From Candidatus Woesearchaeota archaeon (GTDB taxonomy: Archaea > Nanobdellota > Nanobdellia > UBA10117 > JABICX01), in assembly GCA_018692915.1 (NCBI GenBank), contig JABHLG010000009.1, positions 9,332-73,331 on the forward strand: a DNA stretch of 64,000 bases, in the 5' to 3' direction. The notes beneath the pieces are model-generated. The model was not told the DNA's origin. It saw nothing but the letters and a program-made list of their open reading frames with translations, and did not search any database. Position 1 is the stretch's first letter, and each line of letters starts with the position of its first letter. Position numbers and translations under genes: made by a program. Positions 6,481-52,509 of the stretch are shown one piece after another.

Positions 6481-8256
6481 CTAAATGCCCCATATTTCTT
6501 TCTCTCGTCTATGGATTTCTGCAATTTCATTAAGGGTTGTCTTTTCTTGTCCATTTAATAATTTTTTAACTCCCTTTAACTGTTTAAAACTTGATTCGGG
6601 CACATCAATATACAACTCATCTCCACCTTCTGCATTTCTGCCAATTGTAATTCCCTTAACAGAAAGCGCTGCTTGCTCGCCTTGTTTTATCTCATCTAAC
6701 TTTTTTCCAGCATCTTCAACACTTTTTATTGTTCCGATAACAAGCCCATCTTTATTCATTATATGTGTATTTGCTCGTATCTTACCTGCAAGAACTTCCA
6801 CACCAAAAATAGCGGGACCTGATTGTCTAAATATATATTGAGGAAGTATTCTAAATTTTCCTGGCCAAGTTATACCTTGTAGCTTTTCTATTTCTGCTTT
6901 CTTTTTCAGCACTTCAATTTGTTCTTCATATTCTTCAACAATTTTGTAAATAACAGGATGACAGATAACAGGAATACTTTCTTTTTCAGCTTCTTTTTTT
7001 ACAGAATCAATACATTTTACATTAAATCCTAGCACAAACCCTGCGCCTATAACTTCTTTCTGACTAGCTGCTTCTAAAACATCATTCTTTGATATGTCTC
7101 CAATATCTGCTTTCTTAATCTGAATACCTTTTTGTTTTAGCAAATTTGCAGCAGCTTCAATTGACCCAAGAGTATCTGCTTTAAGAATAATTCCTACATC
7201 ATCAGTCTCAATTAAAACTTCTTCAATTTCATTTAAAATTCGCTCTTTTGCTTCATCAATTTCATCTTGATTTCTACCTGACGCAAATGGTGCTCCTGCA
7301 AGTGCTTTATCCAAGTCAGGTGCAAGAATTTTGATTCCTGTTGCAGCTACAACTTTATCTACGTGCTTAAAGCTACTCTTGCTATCGCGTATTTCAGATA
7401 ATGGCAATGGCTTAAGCAAAGACCTAATCTTTGTGTCAAAAACATCTACGCCCCCAACAATAATCGTATCTTCTTTAGTTAGAGAACCTGCGTAAATAAT
7501 AACATCCGCAGTAGTTCCCATTCCTTTTTCTTCCTTTATTTCGAGAATTGTTCCTTGTGCAGGTTTATTTACATCAATCTCAAGTTTATCATGTAAAAAT
7601 TTCTGTGAAAGTCCGGTTAAAATCGCTAATAGCTCTGCAACTCCTTCTCCAGAATGTCCTGAAACAGGAACAATAGCAACATTTTTGCTATAATCATCAA
7701 CTTGATTATAAATGTTTGAATCAAAACCTAATTCAGATAACTCTCCAATCAATTTGTAAAATCTTGTTTCGTAAGCTTCTTTTGCTTGCTGAGTTTGCTG
7801 TTTAAGATTTGATAAAAAAGTTTTGTCGTGAGGTTTCCATCCAGTTATCCTATCAACTTTTGTAGCTGCTACAATAAATGGAACTTTGAAAGTTTTAAGA
7901 ATCTGAATAGCTTCTTTTGTCTGAGGCTGAACACCTTGATTAATATCAATTATAAGAACTGCAAGGTCTGCAATTGACCCACCTCGCTTTCGCAGGTTTG
8001 TAAATGCTTCATGACCTGGTGTATCTATAAATAAAAGCCCTGGAATAGTAAATTTCAGATTAAAAACCTCTAAAAGACCACCACAAACCTTTTTCAGCGT
8101 GCCAATTGGCACTTCTGTTGCACCAATATGTTGTGTAATCTTACCTGCCTCTCTCTGAGCAAGAGTGGTTCCCCTAATATAATCAAGCAAAGTTGTTTTG
8201 CCATGGTCTACATGACCCAACACAGTAATTATTGGTTGTCGAATAATTTTAATCAC
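6481..8256 (-). CDS. infB: translation initiation factor aIF5B (IF-2)
   Basis: G-domain GHVDHGKTTLLDYIRGT and DTPGHEAF. Length and domain order are typical of aIF5B. Confidence 0.95.
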   Translation of the reverse strand: MIKIIRQPIITVLGHVDHGKTTLLDYIRGTTLAQREAGKITQHIGATEVPIGTLKKVCGGLLEVFNLKFTIPGLLFIDTPGHEAFTNLRKRGGSIADLAVLIIDINQGVQPQTKEAIQILKTFKVPFIVAATKVDRITGWKPHDKTFLSNLKQQTQQAKEAYETRFYKLIGELSELGFDSNIYNQVDDYSKNVAIVPVSGHSGEGVAELLAILTGLSQKFLHDKLEIDVNKPAQGTILEIKEEKGMGTTADVIIYAGSLTKEDTIIVGGVDVFDTKIRSLLKPLPLSEIRDSKSSFKHVDKVVAATGIKILAPDLDKALAGAPFASGRNQDEIDEAKERILNEIEEVLIETDDVGIILKADTLGSIEAAANLLKQKGIQIKKADIGDISKNDVLEAASQKEVIGAGFVLGFNVKCIDSVKKEAEKESIPVICHPVIYKIVEEYEEQIEVLKKKAEIEKLQGITWPGKFRILPQYIFRQSGPAIFGVEVLAGKIRANTHIMNKDGLVIGTIKSVEDAGKKLDEIKQGEQAALSVKGITIGRNAEGGDELYIDVPESSFKQLKGVKKLLNGQEKTTLNEIAEIHRREKEIWGI

Positions 8257-24105: not shown

Positions 24106-24846
24106 ATGAAATACAAGATTAGTGGAGATAATTTGCAGGTAGCTAATGTAAGCCTTGCAAAAAATGATATTGTAAATGCTGAAGCAGGTGCAATGGTTTA
24201 CAAATCAGGTAATGTTACAATTGATACTGAAACAAAAGGTGCTGGAAAAGCATTTAAGCGAATTTTAACTGGCGAATCTCTTTTTCTAACAAAGTTCAAG
24301 TCAGTTGGTGGTTCTGGAATAGTTGGTTTTGGTGGAAAAATTCCGGGTAAAATCAAAGTATTTCAATTAAAGAAAGGTCAACACATAATCGCAGAGAAAG
24401 GTGCTTATTTATGTTCTGACTCAACAATTGATATTGACCTAAAAACAGTTAAAAAAGTTGGAGCTGCCTTATTTGGTGGTGAAGGAATATTTTTACAGAA
24501 GATTTCTGGACCTGGAACAGTTTTACTACACGCTGCAGGAGATTTAATTGAATATAATCTTAAGAAATGTGAAAGACTTGATGTTGATACATCTCATTTA
24601 GTTGCTTTTGAACCAACAGTTGATTATGATATTCGCAGAGTTGGTGGAATCAAGACAACAGTATTTGGTGGTGAAGGATTATTCCTTGCGCAAATGACTG
24701 GACCGGGAAAAGTTATTCTTCAGAGCATGACAAAACAAATGTTAATGGGTCCTCGAACATCAGGTGGAACAACACATTCAAATATGGGTAGAAATCAAGC
24801 TGCAGGAAGTGTTCTTGGTGGAGTGCTAAGAGGTATATCTCACTGA
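24106..24846 (+). CDS. TIGR00266 / AIM24-family protein
   Basis: GESLFLTKF ... ALFGGEGIFLQKISGPGTVLLHAAGDLIEY ... DVDTSHLVAFE. The start is taken at MKYKISG (24106). The track ORF begins at 24049 with a probably spurious hydrophobic leader. Confidence 0.7.
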   Translation: MKYKISGDNLQVANVSLAKNDIVNAEAGAMVYKSGNVTIDTETKGAGKAFKRILTGESLFLTKFKSVGGSGIVGFGGKIPGKIKVFQLKKGQHIIAEKGAYLCSDSTIDIDLKTVKKVGAALFGGEGIFLQKISGPGTVLLHAAGDLIEYNLKKCERLDVDTSHLVAFEPTVDYDIRRVGGIKTTVFGGEGLFLAQMTGPGKVILQSMTKQMLMGPRTSGGTTHSNMGRNQAAGSVLGGVLRGISH

Positions 24847-25553
24847 TGAAACTTAAAGATAAAATTATTGTTATCACAGGTGCAAGTGATGGTATTGGAA
24901 AGCAAATTGCTTTAAGACTTGCTAAAGAAAACACTCGACTTGCTCTGATTGCAAGAGATAAAAAAAGATTAACTGAAGTTTCTAAATTATCTAAACAACT
25001 TGGTGCTGCAGAAGTTAAAATATATCTTTGTGACATTTGTAAAACTAAAAAATTAGAAAAAACTGTAAAGGATATTGTTTCTTATTTTGGTAGTATTGAT
25101 ATTCTTATTAACAATGCTGGAATCTGGCAGAAAATTAATCCTCTTGAAAAAATAAAAAAAGACATTGTTGATGAAATTATTGGAACTAATCTTACAGGTT
25201 TAATTCATATAACTAAATTATTTCTGCCTGTTCTGAAAAAACAAAAAGAATCTGCGATAATCAATGTTTCTTCAAGATCGGGTATTGTGCCACAAGAAGG
25301 TCAATCTGTATACTCTGCTAGCAAATATGGCGTTAAAGGATTCACAGATGTTCTTAAAATCGATCTTAAATCGACTAATGTAAAAGTTGCAGGAGTATAT
25401 CAGGGTGGAACAAATACAAGAATGTTCGCAAAAACTGGAGATAATTTCCCAACAGATAATTTTACTGAGCCGGCTGATTTAGCAGATGTTGTTGTATATA
25501 TGTTATCTAGACCTGCAAAAATATGGTTACCTGAAGTCCACATAGAACGCTAG
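24846..25553 (+). CDS. SDR-family short-chain dehydrogenase/reductase
   Basis: ITGASDGIGK cofactor motif, NNAG, and the YSASK catalytic motif. Confidence 0.85.
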   Translation: MKLKDKIIVITGASDGIGKQIALRLAKENTRLALIARDKKRLTEVSKLSKQLGAAEVKIYLCDICKTKKLEKTVKDIVSYFGSIDILINNAGIWQKINPLEKIKKDIVDEIIGTNLTGLIHITKLFLPVLKKQKESAIINVSSRSGIVPQEGQSVYSASKYGVKGFTDVLKIDLKSTNVKVAGVYQGGTNTRMFAKTGDNFPTDNFTEPADLADVVVYMLSRPAKIWLPEVHIER

Positions 25554-25586
25554 AAAACTATTTATTTCTGGACTTTTTTAGATAAT

Positions 25587-25802
25587 ATGAAAGGAACATC
25601 TTGGTTGAAAGGGATTGGTGGATTAATATTAGTTGCTTGTCTTGCAATTCTAGCGATTGTGTTCTTTGTGGCATTTAATGCATTATACGCAGCTGCACTA
25701 GCAATTCTTGCAATTGTTGCAATTATAGTTCTTCCATATTATTTTGGTAGACCAAATCAACCAGAAAAAGCAGGAAATTATAAGCTAAAGAAAATCAAGT
25801 AA
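25587..25802 (+). CDS. small membrane protein (71 aa, 2 TM)
   Basis: ORF track entry with a hydrophobic A/I/L-rich profile. Confidence 0.35.
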   Translation: MKGTSWLKGIGGLILVACLAILAIVFFVAFNALYAAALAILAIVAIIVLPYYFGRPNQPEKAGNYKLKKIK

Positions 25803-25837
25803 ACAAAAACTTATAACAGAAATATTAAACACAATAA

Positions 25838-26434
25838 ATGGACGAGCGAAAGACTAAAATTATTGCTTTTCTAAGAGAAATTGATAAATTCAAATTCATT
25901 ATTAGAGAAATTTATCGCACAGATGATAAAAAAGAAACTAACTCTGACCATGTATGGCACATTGCAATGTTCTTATTGCTTTTTGAAAAAGATGTAGCAG
26001 AACGCGTTGATATTCTCAAGTGCTTTAAGATGATTTTAATTCATGATATTGTTGAGATGTATGCAGGAGACACGTTTGCTTTTGTTGATGCAGATGCAAA
26101 GAAAGAAAAAGAAGTACAAGAAATAAAAGCTGCTGAAAAATTATTCGGACAGCTGCCAGAAGATTTAGGTGAAGAAATACACAATCTCTGGAAAGAATAT
26201 GAAGCTGCTGAAACTAAAGAGGCGCGATTTGTTAAAGGCTTAGACAGACTTCAAGCATTTAATCAAAACATCATAAGTAATGGTCGAATTTGGTGGGAAC
26301 GTAATGTTACATTTGATAAAGCTAAAGATTACAAACAAGAGTTCATAAATAGCGATGAGCTACTAACTGAAGTTTACAACGATATGCTAGAAGAAGTTAA
26401 GAAAATCTTCGATGACAAAAATAAGCAATCTTAA
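25838..26434 (+). CDS. HD-domain phosphohydrolase (YfbR-like 5'-deoxynucleotidase family)
   Basis: SDHVWH ... LIHDIVEMYAGD are the HD motifs. Confidence 0.7.
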   Translation: MDERKTKIIAFLREIDKFKFIIREIYRTDDKKETNSDHVWHIAMFLLLFEKDVAERVDILKCFKMILIHDIVEMYAGDTFAFVDADAKKEKEVQEIKAAEKLFGQLPEDLGEEIHNLWKEYEAAETKEARFVKGLDRLQAFNQNIISNGRIWWERNVTFDKAKDYKQEFINSDELLTEVYNDMLEEVKKIFDDKNKQS

Positions 26435-26436
26435 AA

Positions 26437-26871
26437 TTATTTAACACATTGTATGTAATATTTATCTAACACATCAGTTGCTTTCTCTAAAAGCTTATTC
26501 CAAGATATGGTATGATATGTATTAAAACTGCCCACACCCATATTACCTTTAAATTCCGTGAATGAACTACTCACATCCATATTGTCTTTAAATTCCGTGG
26601 ATGTTTTATCTTCTTTTGATAGAACTACTTTTTCAATACTAAAACCCGCATCTATACCTTTTACACTATTACTATGAATTTTAGGTTTAATTTCAATATT
26701 CTCTCCTCGACATACCTCTTCAACTATTTTTTTGAGTGAAAAATATTTCTGAATTGTAAACGGTCCTTCAAATTTAACAAAATATTCTTTTACCTCAAAT
26801 ACATTTTCTGGTGGTATGTAAGGATGTCCTATTTTTATACCTTCAAGAATATGTGTTATAGGTTTATTCAT
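26437..26871 (-). CDS. hypothetical protein with an internal tandem repeat (TEFKDNMDVSSS / TEFKGNMGVGS)
   Basis: ORF track entry. The repeat is also visible at the DNA level. Confidence 0.4.
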   Translation of the reverse strand: MNKPITHILEGIKIGHPYIPPENVFEVKEYFVKFEGPFTIQKYFSLKKIVEEVCRGENIEIKPKIHSNSVKGIDAGFSIEKVVLSKEDKTSTEFKDNMDVSSSFTEFKGNMGVGSFNTYHTISWNKLLEKATDVLDKYYIQCVK

Positions 26872-26948: not shown

Positions 26949-28712
26949 ATGAGTAGAATAGCAATATTAAAACGTGCGGATTGTAATCCTAAAAAGTGCA
27001 GTCATGAATGTGAAAAATACTGTCCAGTTAATCGAACAGGTAAAGAATGTATCATTATAGATGAGACTGCAAAGATAGCTGAAGAGCTCTGCACGGGTTG
27101 TGGAATCTGCCCAAAAAAATGTCCATTTGATGCAATTCAAATTGTGAATCTTCCTCATCAGCTAAAAGAAAAACCTGTTTTCCGTTACGGTAAAAATGCT
27201 TTTGAACTTTTCAGACTCCCTGTTCCGCAAAAGGGTCAAGTTGTTGGTATATTAGGTTCAAATGGAATTGGTAAATCAACTGCACTTGAAATGTTAGCAG
27301 GACTTTTAAAACCAAATCTTGGTCAATTTGAAAAGGAACTTTTAGAAAAGGAAATTATTGATAGTTTTAAGGGAACTGAATTACAAGCATATTTTACTAA
27401 ATTATTTTCTAAGAAAATTTCAGTTAGTTACAAGCCACAATATATTGATTTAATCCCAAAGAAGTTTAAGGGTAAGGTTATTGACTTACTCTCAAAAGCA
27501 GGAAGCAAGAAACAAATTGATGAAATCTCAAAAGAAATTAACATTGGAGCGATTATTAACAGAAAAATTGAACAGCTATCAGGTGGAGAATTACAAAAAG
27601 TTGCAATTGCTGCTGCTGTATTAAAAGAAGCTGACTTATATTTGTTTGACGAGCCAGCATCTTATTTAGATGTTAAAGAAAGAGTTCGTGTTGCAAAAGT
27701 AATTAGAACTCTTGCTGAAAAAGGAAAGCATGTAATTGTCGTAGAACACGACTTGATTATTTTAGATTATCTTGCAGACCTCATTCATATTTTATTTGGG
27801 CAGATGGCAGCTTATGGAGTTGTATCACATCCCCTATCTGCTAAAAATGGCGTTAATACTTATTTAGATGGTTATTTACGAGATGAAAATATTCGATTTA
27901 GAACTCAATCAATTAAGTTTGACCATTCTGCAGCAGGTAGAAGCCAAGATTTAATTGTATTTACAAAATGGCCTGCACTTAAGAAAAAGCTAGGAACATT
28001 TAATCTAGAAATTGAACCTTCTGAAATTCACAAAAAAGAAATTGTTGGAATTGTTGGAGCAAATGCAATTGGTAAAACTACTTTTATGAAAATGATTGCA
28101 GGTCAACTTAAGCCAGACTCTGGCAAGATTCCTGCAAAACTAAAAATATCTTACAAAGAACAATATCTAAAACCACAAAAAGGCGTAACTGTAATGTCTG
28201 CACTTAGTTCAGTTACAAAAGAAATTATGACACAAAAATTCAAGCTAGATATTTTACGACCTTTGGAAATTGAACACTTGATGAATCACAAACTAGATGA
28301 ATTATCAGGTGGGGAACTTCAGAGAGTTGCAATTGCAGCGTGTCTTGCTCGCAAAGCAGATTTCTATTTGCTTGATGAACCTTCAACATATCTTGATGTT
28401 GAGCAAAGACTTCAAGCTGCTCGTGCAATTCAGAAAGTTATCAAAGATAGAGAAGCAGCAGCATTAGTAATTGACCATGACCTCTTATTTATCAACTATG
28501 TCTCAGATAGATTAATGGTTTTTGATGGAACTCCTGCAAAGAAAGGTAAAGCAAACAAAATTCAAACAGTTAAAGCTGGAATGAATCACTTTTTGAAAGA
28601 ACTAGATATCACATTAAGAAAAGACCCTTCAACTCACCGTCCTCGAGTTAACCAACCAGGAAGTCAGAAAGATAAAGTTCAAAGAAAACAAAATAAGTTT
28701 TACGAATTTTAA
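26949..28712 (+). CDS. abce1: ABCE1 / RNase L inhibitor-type ribosome recycling ATPase
   Basis: N-terminal 4Fe-4S ferredoxin Cys clusters (CNPKKCSHECEKYCP, CTGCGICPKKCP) followed by two ABC cassettes (LSGGELQ x2). Confidence 0.95.
   Translation: MSRIAILKRADCNPKKCSHECEKYCPVNRTGKECIIIDETAKIAEELCTGCGICPKKCPFDAIQIVNLPHQLKEKPVFRYGKNAFELFRLPVPQKGQVVGILGSNGIGKSTALEMLAGLLKPNLGQFEKELLEKEIIDSFKGTELQAYFTKLFSKKISVSYKPQYIDLIPKKFKGKVIDLLSKAGSKKQIDEISKEINIGAIINRKIEQLSGGELQKVAIAAAVLKEADLYLFDEPASYLDVKERVRVAKVIRTLAEKGKHVIVVEHDLIILDYLADLIHILFGQMAAYGVVSHPLSAKNGVNTYLDGYLRDENIRFRTQSIKFDHSAAGRSQDLIVFTKWPALKKKLGTFNLEIEPSEIHKKEIVGIVGANAIGKTTFMKMIAGQLKPDSGKIPAKLKISYKEQYLKPQKGVTVMSALSSVTKEIMTQKFKLDILRPLEIEHLMNHKLDELSGGELQRVAIAACLARKADFYLLDEPSTYLDVEQRLQAARAIQKVIKDREAAALVIDHDLLFINYVSDRLMVFDGTPAKKGKANKIQTVKAGMNHFLKELDITLRKDPSTHRPRVNQPGSQKDKVQRKQNKFYEF
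28671..28712 (+). repeat. direct repeat copy 1 (last 42 nt of ABCE1 including the stop)
   Basis: gataaagttcaaagaaaacaaaataagttttacgaattttaa is identical to 28804-28845 except for one C/T difference. Confidence 0.8.
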
Positions 28713-28781
28713 TATTTCTAAATTTTAAGAATAACAAGTTTTTTGACGAACAAATTTACGTTCTGAGGAGAAAAGGCGTGG

Positions 28782-28803
28782 TCAAACTTCGCCCGAAGTT
28801 TGA
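28782..28803. other. GC-rich perfect hairpin (9-bp stem, 4-nt loop) between the two repeat copies
   Basis: tcaaacttc-gccc-gaagtttga. It is an unusually GC-rich structured element in an AT-rich spacer. Confidence 0.5.
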
Positions 28804-28845
28804 GATAAAGTTCAAAGAAAACAAAATAAGTTTTATGAATTTTAA
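28804..28845 (+). repeat. direct repeat copy 2 (non-coding duplicate of the ABCE1 3' end)
   Basis: A 42-nt copy with one mismatch, 133 nt downstream of copy 1. Confidence 0.8.
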
Positions 28846-28922
28846 ATTTATTAAAACAAAAGTGCTAAAGATAATATCTTAATTAGTATTTGTTTAAAAA
28901 TATTCCTAACACGAAATGGGAT

Positions 28923-28972
28923 ATATCACGTATTGCAAATATCACGTATCTCAAAAAAAGATATATAAAGGG
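28923..28972 (+). promoter_or_regulatory. candidate promoter/operator upstream of the 29015 gene
   Basis: Direct repeat ATATCACGTAT (28923-28933 and 28939-28949, separated by tgcaa), then a purine tract and the TATA-like box gatatataaag (28960-28970), about 45 nt before the ATG. A strong SD (ggagg) lies at 29001-29005. Confidence 0.4.
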
Positions 28973-29014
28973 ACAACTCGAATTTTAGAATCCTAGAAAA
29001 GGAGGCTATACAAT

Positions 29015-29203
29015 ATGGTAAAAAGAATAATAACAAATCGACTATCGGGTGGACAACCCAAAGAAACGTGCGAAGACTGCGGAAGTGAAACTAAAGGTGT
29101 CTTAATGTTTAAAAAGTGTCCAGATTGTAAGAGCTCCCGAATTACAACACTTGCAGAAACCGGAGAGAAATTCTGTCGTGCATGTGGCTTAGTTTTACTT
29201 TAA
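29015..29203 (+). CDS. small zinc-ribbon protein resembling the N-terminal Zn-ribbon of TFB/TFIIB (62 aa)
   Basis: KCPDCKSSRITTLAETGEKFCRACGLVL matches the TFB ribbon pattern CPxCGxxxxxxDxxxGExVCxxCGxV, and there is an extra N-terminal CEDCGS pair. It is preceded by a strong SD. Confidence 0.55.
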   Translation: MVKRIITNRLSGGQPKETCEDCGSETKGVLMFKKCPDCKSSRITTLAETGEKFCRACGLVLL

Positions 29204-29210
29204 TTTTTAT

Positions 29211-30116
29211 TTATTTTCTTAATATTTTATGTATATTTTCTTCAGAACCAATGTAAACTCTATAATCTTTAATACAATTACTAAATTTACCAATCATATC
29301 ATAAAATCCATTTACAGAAAGGTAATTATCTCTTTTCTCTAAAAAGTTATCATCTCCACTTAACTCTAGGAAACTTAGATTAAGTGGAAATTTAGCTGCA
29401 TTAATTAAGTTTATTTTTGTATCAGATTCAGGGATAATTTCACCAGACGCACCTTTATTATATTGTAAAGATAAAGATCTGATACGTGATTTATTATTTC
29501 TAATAATTATTGGTTCGTCTATTGTAATAATCTTATTTTCTAATCCACCAGTAATTCTTGATAGAGTATGTATTTTTTTATCAGGGTGACGCTGACTAAA
29601 TAAAGTTACATTATCAGCAGTAGGTTTTGCAACTAAATAAGACCCTGAAAGAACATTAATATCCTCATCATATGTATTAATTAAGTGATCTAAAATAGTG
29701 CTTTTACCTGTTCCTTTTTGTGAACTACTAAGAAGATATATTTGATTTTTATATTCAAACGCAACCCCATGAATAAATAATAATTCTCTTGCTAAAGATA
29801 ACATAATTGAGCGCATAAATACGGAATTTATATTACGATCTCCTAATTTTGACTCTAACTCATCTGAATTAATATTAATATTTGCACAACCATATGCCGT
29901 ATTTAATTCTATAGTATTTGCAGAAGAAGTAGTATCTATATTTAATTTTCCGATAAAATCATTAGCATTATAATGCGGTAATTCTCTAACATATATTCCG
30001 CGCATTAATTCACCAATATTAATTTCTAAATACCTTGCAATACTTCGATTATCTTTAACTGTATATTGAAATTTTCTTCTTTCTGGGCCAATTTCATATG
30101 CTCGTTTTGATTCCAT
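29211..30116 (-). CDS. HprK-like P-loop protein (HPr kinase/phosphorylase C-terminal domain-like fold), function unknown
   Basis: IHGVAFEYKNQIYLLSSSQKGTGKSTILDHL ... VLSGSYLV fits the HprK-type pattern hHG...g.gvLl.G.SG.GKS. Its start ATG shares 1 nt with the upstream gene's stop (TAATG). Confidence 0.6.
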   Translation of the reverse strand: MESKRAYEIGPERRKFQYTVKDNRSIARYLEINIGELMRGIYVRELPHYNANDFIGKLNIDTTSSANTIELNTAYGCANININSDELESKLGDRNINSVFMRSIMLSLARELLFIHGVAFEYKNQIYLLSSSQKGTGKSTILDHLINTYDEDINVLSGSYLVAKPTADNVTLFSQRHPDKKIHTLSRITGGLENKIITIDEPIIIRNNKSRIRSLSLQYNKGASGEIIPESDTKINLINAAKFPLNLSFLELSGDDNFLEKRDNYLSVNGFYDMIGKFSNCIKDYRVYIGSEENIHKILRK

Positions 30117-31903
30117 TATTCTATCTTAACAAAACCTCCTTCACTTTTTATGAAATTATCAATATTAAATTCCTTAAGTGGTAATTTTATGATGTGTCCT
30201 GCGTTAAAGTATTTTTGAAAAGAATAACTAACATTATTATTATCAAACAAAGATTTTGAGTATCTACTGAAATTTAATCTACGAACCTTAGAATCTTTAT
30301 CATAAAAATAATTAGCAATAGTTTCTTTCTGACAATCTCGCAATCCTAATCTAATATAATCTACATCAAGATTATCCATATAATCTCTAGTTGCTTGAAG
30401 AATTATTTCTATATCTTTTAAATTCACATTACCTTCTAAAAGAATATCAAAAGCTTCTTTTAAACCAACTAAAGATAAAGAATACAAACTATCATCTAAA
30501 TGAATATATTTAATTTTCTTAAACAAATATCTGCTCTGAATTGAATTGACTAATTCATAAGAATATTTCAAAACTTCGACAGATTCTTTAATAATTTTAA
30601 ACAACTCTTCTTTAAACAGTTGCAAATTCTTAGTTCTAGCAGCAATACGAGGAGCATTAATTGCAATATTTTGTATGTCACCTACGCGAACTGTTCGCAT
30701 CCAATATTTCCAATTAGCATCTAAACGGGAGTTTTTTAAATAAACTACATTAGATGTCTGCCATTTTGGAATTAAATTCGCAATATAAGATTTCGGTATA
30801 AACAATAAATCATTTTTAGGTTCAGTCCATAGTTTATATACTAAAGATATATTATTTGTTTTTATTTTCTTAAATATATTAAGAATTATATCTGTATTAA
30901 TACCAACATATTTTTCTAAATTCATTAGATTTGGTGGTAAGAAATTTACTTCTAATTCTTTTTGAATAAAACGAGGAGTGCCCATATCTAACCCTAAAAA
31001 TATTTCAACACCAATTGCATCTAAATTTTTAATAAACTTTTCAAGTTCAGATACAATCTTACGCTCATCTAAAATAGATGTATATTTAGAAATAAAATAA
31101 TTAAAAGAATCTAATGCTTGTTCTTTAATACCTAAATTTGCTAGTTTTTTAACCATATTTGTAACTTCCATTAAGTAATCTGGAAGATTAGAAACATTAT
31201 TGAACAAAGCTATTGCATTTAAGTCATGTGAAAAATTAGATACTTTTGGTTTTCCTAAATTCTCAATAAAAATATCTCCATTAATGTGCATATCTAAACC
31301 ATATGGATAACGCAATTTTAAATAATTAAAAAAAGTTTGTATCTTAGCACGAGATTTTTCTATGTTTATTAATGCGCTATTAATTGAATTCACTCTATTT
31401 TGTATTGCAATTTCAAATATTGCTCTAAATTCAATAAGAGATGTTCTTTCACGTATTTGATTTTGAATAGAATTTAATCCAATTTCTATTGTATTTTTAG
31501 GAATGCCTCCATCTAAGTAAGGTTTAGCAAATTTGATTTTATCAAAACGTTCTAGCTTACCATGGTCAGTAATTATATGAAAATCAGATAGTTCACTATC
31601 TTCGTGCTCTATTTTATCACCCTTAAGTATCTTAGATATATTAGATGGATTTATATTAATATAAAAATCTTGGATATAGAACATTCGCTTTAAGCGATTC
31701 TCATGTTCTTGTTTTGAACGAACAAAGCCAGTACGTTCAAGTTGCTCTAAATATTTGTGTGCTGTTGAAAATTTTAAATTAAGTTGCTTAGATATATCTG
31801 TGATTGATTTTGCTCCAGTTTCAGTTAGCAATGCAAGTATTCTTAACTTTACTTCATTGTCAAGCACTTTCAGTTGCTCAATTACTTTCGTGTTTTGAAC
31901 CAT
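30116..31903 (-). CDS. wHTH (ArsR-like) domain fused to a large (about 500 aa) uncharacterised domain
   Basis: The N-terminus LKVLDNEVKLRILALLTETGAKSITDISKQLNLKFSTAHKYLEQLERTGFVRSK is a winged-helix HTH. The remainder has no recognisable motif. It is translationally coupled to the HprK-like gene. Confidence 0.6.
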   Translation of the reverse strand: MVQNTKVIEQLKVLDNEVKLRILALLTETGAKSITDISKQLNLKFSTAHKYLEQLERTGFVRSKQEHENRLKRMFYIQDFYININPSNISKILKGDKIEHEDSELSDFHIITDHGKLERFDKIKFAKPYLDGGIPKNTIEIGLNSIQNQIRERTSLIEFRAIFEIAIQNRVNSINSALINIEKSRAKIQTFFNYLKLRYPYGLDMHINGDIFIENLGKPKVSNFSHDLNAIALFNNVSNLPDYLMEVTNMVKKLANLGIKEQALDSFNYFISKYTSILDERKIVSELEKFIKNLDAIGVEIFLGLDMGTPRFIQKELEVNFLPPNLMNLEKYVGINTDIILNIFKKIKTNNISLVYKLWTEPKNDLLFIPKSYIANLIPKWQTSNVVYLKNSRLDANWKYWMRTVRVGDIQNIAINAPRIAARTKNLQLFKEELFKIIKESVEVLKYSYELVNSIQSRYLFKKIKYIHLDDSLYSLSLVGLKEAFDILLEGNVNLKDIEIILQATRDYMDNLDVDYIRLGLRDCQKETIANYFYDKDSKVRRLNFSRYSKSLFDNNNVSYSFQKYFNAGHIIKLPLKEFNIDNFIKSEGGFVKIE

Positions 31904-34524: not shown

Positions 34525-34547
34525 TGTTCTTTTCTTTCGCGAACGTT

Positions 34548-34567
34548 TCTTTTCTTACAAGAAAAGA
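34548..34567 (-). terminator. palindromic hairpin tcttttctt-acaa-gaaaaga immediately 3' of the 34574 gene (recurring motif, copy A)
   Basis: Perfect inverted repeat. It is the same TTTCTT-GTAAG-AAA family found at four other sites. Confidence 0.4.
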
Positions 34568-34573
34568 AAGGCT

Positions 34574-36605: not shown

Positions 36606-36629
36606 CTTTCTTTCTTGTAAGAAAGAAAG
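36606..36629 (+). terminator. palindromic hairpin ctttctttctt-gta-agaaagaaag, 6 nt after the stop codon (recurring motif, copy B)
   Basis: Seen directly in the sequence. It sits in terminator position. Confidence 0.45.
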
Positions 36630-52370: not shown

Positions 52371-52509
52371 GCTGGGGTACCGAAGTGGTCAAACGGGCAG
52401 GACTTAAGATGAGCCCTTTCTTGTAAGAAAGGTTTCACAGTCCCAAAGAACAAATTATAAGACATCCTGTGGCTTAGTGCCTACGCAGGTTCAAACCCTG
52501 TCCCCAGCA
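52371..52509 (+). tRNA. tRNA-Leu (anticodon UAA) with about 55-nt intron at the canonical 37/38 position (approximately 52410-52464)
   Basis: Acceptor gctgggg/ccccagc, D-arm ccga-agtggtcaa-acgg, anticodon arm cagga-ctTAAga-[intron]-tcctg, a long variable arm (ggcttagtgcctac), T-arm gcagg-ttcaaac-cctgt, discriminator A. No encoded CCA. Confidence 0.75.

Follow-up and report, generated by a model that had tools for sequence, protein, structure and literature searches.

The gene for ABCE1 (RLI) in a Woesearchaeota archaeon ends in a short sequence that occurs a second time just downstream, and this duplicated gene end, together with the DNA enclosed between its two copies, is the subject of this report. 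The stretch analysed, hereafter the window, is 64 kb of the genome of this DPANN organism (GenBank assembly GCA_018692915.1, contig JABHLG010000009.1). The ABCE1 protein encoded in it has the Pfam domains Fer4_RLI and two ABC_tran, its homologues are 80–93% identical, and GCA_018672575.1 and a dozen metagenome contigs carry a gene for the identical protein. The end of the gene forms the first copy of a direct repeat (A1) and is followed by a segment that we call B, by the second copy of the repeat (A2), and then by a spacer and a small Zn-ribbon gene. The features of the locus are collected in Table 1.

Table 1. Features at and around the duplicated ABCE1 end (positions in the window; nt, nucleotides; aa, amino acids; ORF, open reading frame; UTR, untranslated region)
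Feature	Position	Strand	Description
ABCE1 (RLI)	26949–28712	+	587 aa, intact ORF; final 13 codons and TAA form copy 1
Repeat copy 1 (A1)	28670–28712	+	Contiguous with the ABCE1 ORF; present functional 3′ end (…DKVQRKQNKFYEF*)
Segment B	28713–28802	+	90 nt of orphan DNA between the copies; now ABCE1 3′ UTR
T6 run	28739–28744	+	27 nt past the ABCE1 stop; read from the sequence
Speculative 34-aa ORF	28778–28882	+	Starts at GTG, GGAG 7 nt before it; runs through copy 2 in a different frame
Hairpin	28782–28803		Perfect, 9 bp, TCAAACTTC-GCCC-GAAGTTTGA; right edge of B, abuts copy 2
Repeat copy 2 (A2)	28803–28845	+	Non-coding; in-frame TGA at 28801–28803 just before it
Ancestral ABCE1/Zn-ribbon spacer	28846–29014	+	Homologous to the 142–160-nt spacers of relatives
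Zn-ribbon gene	29015–29203	+	Small gene after the spacer
301-aa gene and 595-aa wHTH/NrdD-like gene	29211–31903	-	Followed by a CBS gene

The direct repeat is 43 nt long (AGATAAAG…GAATTTTAA), or 42 nt when counted from the GAT at 28671 and 28804. Its copies start 133 nt apart and match at 42 of 43 positions. The sole mismatch is a C at 28703 in copy 1 against a T at 28836 in copy 2; it is silent, with TAC and TAT both encoding tyrosine, and copy 2 shares its T with the closest relative. These values bear out the preliminary description of the locus, which had reported a 42-nt duplication of the ABCE1 end recurring 133 nt downstream with one mismatch. No other near-perfect direct repeat of such short range exists in the window, where the 42-mer occurs exactly twice against an expectation of zero (100 shuffles), and no third copy that would mark a larger island was found in the window at up to three mismatches. 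In gapped alignments, the flanks beyond the repeat edges are no more alike than shuffled sequence. Similarity is thus lost at both edges, which places the end of the repeat at the TAA stop codon. The region from 28600 to 29020 (421 nt) is 100% identical in nine other contigs of the species, which come from nine separate ENA, JGI and NCBI records with different samples and assemblers. The arrangement is therefore real and not an assembly artefact, and the order A1-B-A2 is fixed in the sampled populations of the species.

Related loci were gathered via a genome collection, a protein database with contig look-ups, and a metagenome collection. A single ABCE1 end is found in all eight related lineages for which DNA was obtained (L092-94/L096, L009/L089/L097/L098, L090, L010/L101, L099/L100, L091/L112, L103 and L176; ABCE1 80–93% identical), and two more lineages (P0007 and P0010) have single-end spacing, judged from gene coordinates only, with spacers of 146 and 154 nt. 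The distance from ABCE1 to the Zn-ribbon gene is 302 nt in the window against 142–223 nt in these ten lineages, most of which have 142–160 nt before a small Zn-ribbon gene, with two at 178 and 223 nt. Segment B has no counterpart in the spacers of relatives. A shared duplicated arrangement in relatives, which had been named as a sign of an ordinary terminator duplication, is not what the comparison revealed: the ten related lineages are empty sites, and the arrangement is a lineage-specific insertion and not a conserved terminator duplication. The insertion is real and specific to this species, the only one with a duplicated gene end among the 174 archaeal ABCE1 loci scanned.

The closest relative, L092/L096 (ABCE1 93% identical in protein and 88% in DNA), makes clear which copy is new. 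Positions 6722–7127 of L096, from the final 43 nt of ABCE1 across the spacer and through the Zn-ribbon gene, are colinear with 28803–29217 of the window at 88% identity, and the L096 ABCE1 gene also aligns up to position 28712. Since the single gene end of L096 is colinear with copy 2 and the DNA downstream of it, copy 2 is the original end, now displaced, and the new material consists of copy 1 and B (133 nt in all). Copy 2 is thus the ancestral copy and keeps its ancestral flank. The two copies are 98% alike, against 88% for the orthologous genes, and so the event was recent, within the lineage of this species. Tandem duplication of a 133-nt unit was rejected, as the DNA past copy 2 is the ancestral spacer and holds no second B.

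One way to arrive at this arrangement is replacement of the gene end by a linear fragment from a conspecific strain in which the interior of ABCE1 ran into a different flank, B, with a homologous join on the left and an illegitimate join on the right, 43 nt before the resident stop. Such a replacement, which we regard as improbable, would account both for similarity that ends at the stop and for the one-base difference between the copies, and gene content around ABCE1 does vary between lineages. However, divergence along ABCE1 is flat, with no shift that would mark a recombination tract, and no strain was found in which B is followed by other DNA. The donor would also already have to own the novel flank B, which only moves the question back.

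Segment B itself is orphan DNA, and the preliminary length of 87 bp for the insert needs correction, as the unique segment between the copies measures 90 nt. No match to B was found by blastn-short in the window or in related loci, the rest of the organism's genome and the metagenomes being outside this search, and viral contigs, phage records and plasmid records gave none either. Translations of B have no match in Pfam, PHROG or the protein database, and a chimeric query of all its open frames shared no word with any protein among 5.8 billion sequences. The right 40 nt of B have 50% G+C in a genome of 32% G+C; with this GC-rich end and no homologue in relatives, B looks foreign. The hairpin at its right edge had been called perfect and unusually GC-rich. 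Its pairing is indeed perfect, but the arms have just 3 G+C in 9 positions, and the GC-richness is confined to the loop and the surrounding 40 nt. The hairpin is real and statistically unremarkable: distinct perfect hairpins of 9 bp or more number about 6 in the window where roughly 4 would be expected, and this one has no further copy there. Among the other five, four are located 5–30 nt past a stop codon; the hairpin in B resembles a gene-end hairpin of this kind, with no similarly placed stop seen except the TGA at 28764–28766. Elsewhere in the window, one and the same hairpin, CTTTCTTT(T)CT-TGTA-AGAAAGAAAG, is found at 34546–34569 and at 36606–36629, just past the stops of two different genes.

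Archaeal termination uses oligo-T tracts, and by analogy the T6 run in B may act as a terminator. Neither the ancestral spacer past copy 2 nor the relatives' spacers inspected showed a run of at least five T. It has to be considered, then, whether B is a functional module under selection, be it a small RNA gene, the 34-aa ORF, or a new terminator that shields the Zn-ribbon promoter against transcripts running on from ABCE1. All sampled populations have the arrangement fixed and without variation, the T6 run and the hairpin occur only in B, the GTG of the ORF has its GGAG at a distance of 7 nt, and hairpins just past stops are frequent in this genome. Nevertheless, fixation is the one positive sign of such a module, and we consider a selected function as the explanation quite improbable. 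As a structured RNA, B was rejected because its folding energy does not improve on that of shuffled sequence, be it for the + strand (z = 0.07) or for the - strand (z = -0.73). Rfam returned nothing for the insert at gathering or E-value thresholds, bar a chance SAM-II-like match at 14 bits, and ARAGORN found no tRNA in or near it. An archaeal C/D-box small RNA, which should present C (RUGAUGA), D′, C′ and D (CUGA) boxes with guides of about 12 nt, was likewise discarded: B offers only a degenerate TGACGA, 13 nt, and then CTGA (28744–28766), with no second box pair and nothing in Rfam. The 34-aa ORF is confined to one species, with no family and no homologue found. A conserved terminator or 3′ UTR structure of ABCE1 does not fit either, as B, its hairpin and its T6 run are all missing from relatives. 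With a single species there is no support from covariation or conservation, and a function would leave the origin of the duplication unexplained.

The reading that we favour, tentatively and with slightly less than even confidence, is that the locus is the scar of a DNA integration at the ABCE1 end, the cargo of which has been almost entirely deleted. Foreign DNA with its own copy of the last 13 ABCE1 codons and stop would have recombined inside the 43-nt stretch, through a crossover that may have been either of the attachment-site (att) type, made by a site-specific recombinase, or of the Campbell type, made by host homologous recombination. The essential gene would have been kept intact and would now end in copy 1, while the original end, copy 2, would have been shifted beyond the insert, still joined to the old spacer and the Zn-ribbon promoter. 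Later deletion of nearly all the integrated DNA would have left 90 nt, segment B, as the ABCE1 3′ UTR with its T6 tract and hairpin. We infer the mechanism of recombination, the loss of cargo and any terminator role of B; it is the topology of gene, A1, B, A2 and old flank, together with an identity block ending at the stop, that we read as incoming DNA carrying its own gene end. An identity block with this boundary is to be expected where incoming DNA has only to restore the gene; for att sites in tRNA genes the pattern is established, reportedly by Williams in 2002.

Archaeal integrative elements insert at tRNA genes and less often at the 3′ ends of protein genes (for general background see PMC8371274). 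In Thaumarchaeota, 14 of 68 integrated elements are located in the 3′-distal part of protein-coding genes, and the att sites of crenarchaeal elements span 29–69 bp with a median of 45 (PMC6563490). The present locus shares several properties with archaeal attL/attR elements in gene 3′ ends, such as those of SSV-type and pNOB8-type tyrosine integrases and the thaumarchaeal elements in protein genes. Direct repeats flank DNA that is missing from relatives, where the site is empty; of the two repeats, one supplies the functional end of the gene and its partner lies downstream with the old flank; the target gene is intact; and the identity block stops at the gene end and, at 43 nt, falls inside the reported archaeal att range of 29–69 bp (PMC6563490). 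It differs from them in having 90 nt between the repeats, no integrase or other gene, no free or second copy, and no attP. The original proposal of an att duplication therefore stands in part: a lineage-specific insertion, a 43-nt repeat ending at the stop and a displaced copy with its ancestral flank agree with it, whereas there is no integrase in or near the insert and no mobile-element gene between the repeats or among the annotated ORFs of the window, a distant transposase gene aside. Membership among att elements cannot be claimed on these grounds, and the locus is at most a heavily deleted relic of one. Literature searches found no case of ABCE1 as an integration target.

Several observations weigh against an integration scar. 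No integrase or reverse transcriptase was found by Pfam among the annotated genes within 10 kb either side of the insert or among 35 further ORFs of the window. Neither half of the 43-mer is present in viral contigs, and hence no attP on a virus was found; nor does any viral contig carry B. The search for further copies that had been proposed for this locus was negative for the 42-mer, the hairpin and the insert alike, in the window, in 177 fetched loci and in viral contigs; phage and plasmid records likewise contained neither B nor the 43-mer. No other scanned locus has a duplicated end, so ABCE1 is not demonstrated to be a recurrent target. Just 90 nt lie between the repeats, with no gene inside, and near-complete internal deletion that spared both repeats is an extra assumption, while precise excision would have erased the scar altogether. 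Finally, 43-nt repeats that lie 90 nt apart should be prone to deletion, yet the arrangement is fixed in all sampled populations.

A more novel reading would make the 133-nt unit, B plus one repeat, a complete and tiny non-autonomous integrative element that attaches at the region of the ABCE1 stop in DPANN archaea and is moved in trans by an unlinked recombinase. The hairpin would then be the recombinase site and the T6 run or the 34-aa ORF the payload. We hold this to be very improbable. It would take as a larger relative at the same site the fill seen in a sister lineage (ABCE1 variant P0124; JGI metagenome 3300072015, contig of 33,091 bp), where the spacer between ABCE1 and the Zn-ribbon gene measures 618 nt and has an extra 120-aa ORF on the + strand, starting 33 nt past the ABCE1 stop. 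The only ENA contig of that lineage reaches just 74 nt upstream of the Zn-ribbon gene. This second, different fill keeps the idea of an insertion hotspot alive and, like the foreign look of B, counts in favour of an integration scar.

Two further kinds of element were considered. Casposons leave target-site duplications of about 14–15 bp. A target-site duplication made by a transposon, a casposon or a miniature inverted-repeat transposable element (MITE) would place direct repeats around an insert, as seen here, but the repeat of 43 nt is far above the 2–15 bp known for such duplications, about three times longer than those of casposons. Thaumarchaeal casposons of family 1 target the 3′ end of the gene for the translation factor EF-2 (PMC6563490), and the locus resembles the duplications of these casposons and of insertion sequences (IS) in that the insert lies at the very 3′ end of an essential gene for a translation factor, has direct repeats on both sides and leaves the gene intact. 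However, B has no terminal inverted repeats at its ends and no other copies, and there is no casposase or transposase with it. An IS4-type DDE transposase gene at 1281–2498 (Pfam DDE_Tnp_1, E = 3e-21) was the sole mobile-element gene detected in the window; it is 26 kb away and unrelated. The lack of inverted repeats and of other copies effectively refutes this explanation, which we rate as highly improbable.

The second kind is the diversity-generating retroelement, which is common in DPANN archaea, and the repeats would then be a pair of variable repeat and template repeat. A gene 3′ end repeated close downstream with a hairpin nearby is what such an element has in common with the present locus. 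The target here, though, is a conserved essential protein with a C-terminus invariant within the species, and not a variable ligand-binding protein, and the repeat, just 43 nt, is too short. The mismatch between the copies is a silent C/T difference on the coding strand and not adenine-specific. The Pfam-annotated genes within 10 kb and the larger window ORFs yielded no reverse transcriptase, and with neither this enzyme nor adenine-directed change the retroelement is refuted, its probability being negligible.

The remaining explanation is a local accident of repair or replication, in which a break or stalled fork led to a template switch, some 90 nt of filler were copied from elsewhere in the genome, and synthesis resumed 43 nt upstream to give A-B-A. 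We regard this as somewhat unlikely. Palindromes favour breaks and template switches, and a perfect palindrome lies exactly at the right junction. The insert is tiny, free of genes and found once, with the duplication adjacent to it, as in known templated insertions and duplication scars, and the neighbourhood is rich in small and large insertions and deletions between lineages. On the other hand, the repeat boundary at the stop codon would be a coincidence, of roughly 1 in 50, under this explanation. A search of the 64-kb window and of related loci, which did not extend to the rest of the genome, gave no source for the 90 nt. Templated insertions are usually shorter than 90 nt, and B is larger than typical filler.

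The preliminary description had also linked the insert to the accessory cassette immediately downstream. The repeat does not bound these genes, which are therefore not cargo of the insertion, and the order of Zn-ribbon gene, variable gene, winged helix-turn-helix (wHTH)/NrdD-like gene and CBS gene is kept in most relatives, with L090 and L176 lacking the variable middle gene. The downstream slot is conserved in position and hypervariable in content. Between 29217 and 31466 there is no nucleotide similarity to the closest relative, while both flanks align at 85–88%; this hypervariable slot takes in the P-loop-like gene of 301 aa and, from the 595-aa gene, the C-terminal three quarters, and its G+C content falls as low as 0.26. 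The 595-aa protein is 40% identical to that of the closest relative, the 301-aa protein and the relative's 370-aa protein are unrelated, and PADLOC matches only the helix-turn-helix part within the slot (Csa3/CasR-like).

The surroundings of the locus have other features as well. The spacer upstream of the Zn-ribbon gene contains, at 28921–28972, two ATATCACRTAT repeats, an A-run and a TATA-like box (ATATATCACGTATTGCAAATATCACGTATCTCAAAAAAAGATATATAAAGGG). This block is almost invariant in five lineages (ABCE1 83–93% identical) and diverged but recognisable in more distant ones; it is better conserved than coding DNA in those five, and so is probably a promoter with operator sites. Just upstream of ABCE1, the region from 24846 to 26871 is lineage-specific and encodes a short-chain dehydrogenase, an HD-domain protein and a 144-aa ORF on the - strand, where the closest relative has a 132-aa ORF. 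Further away, an intron-containing tRNA gene of 139 nt lies at 52371–52509, which Rfam detects at 44 bits and ARAGORN missed.

As we read it, the finding is an ordinary one: the scar occurs once, belongs to a generally known kind, lies at a target gene without an earlier report, and has no demonstrated function. It illustrates that duplication of a gene end is not by itself enough to define a genomic island, since the neighbouring variable genes here are not bounded by the repeat, and it provides a clean, species-specific marker. ABCE1 is an essential gene of ribosome recycling and is universal. On the favoured reading of an integration scar, foreign DNA would have been accepted at its very 3′ end in a DPANN archaeon with a reduced genome, and the gene would have come through undamaged because the incoming DNA restored its reading frame. 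To our knowledge, the mobile elements of Woesearchaeota are poorly characterised. Should an integrative element have left this scar, the locus would suggest an attachment site not recorded before and an integrase at work in this group.

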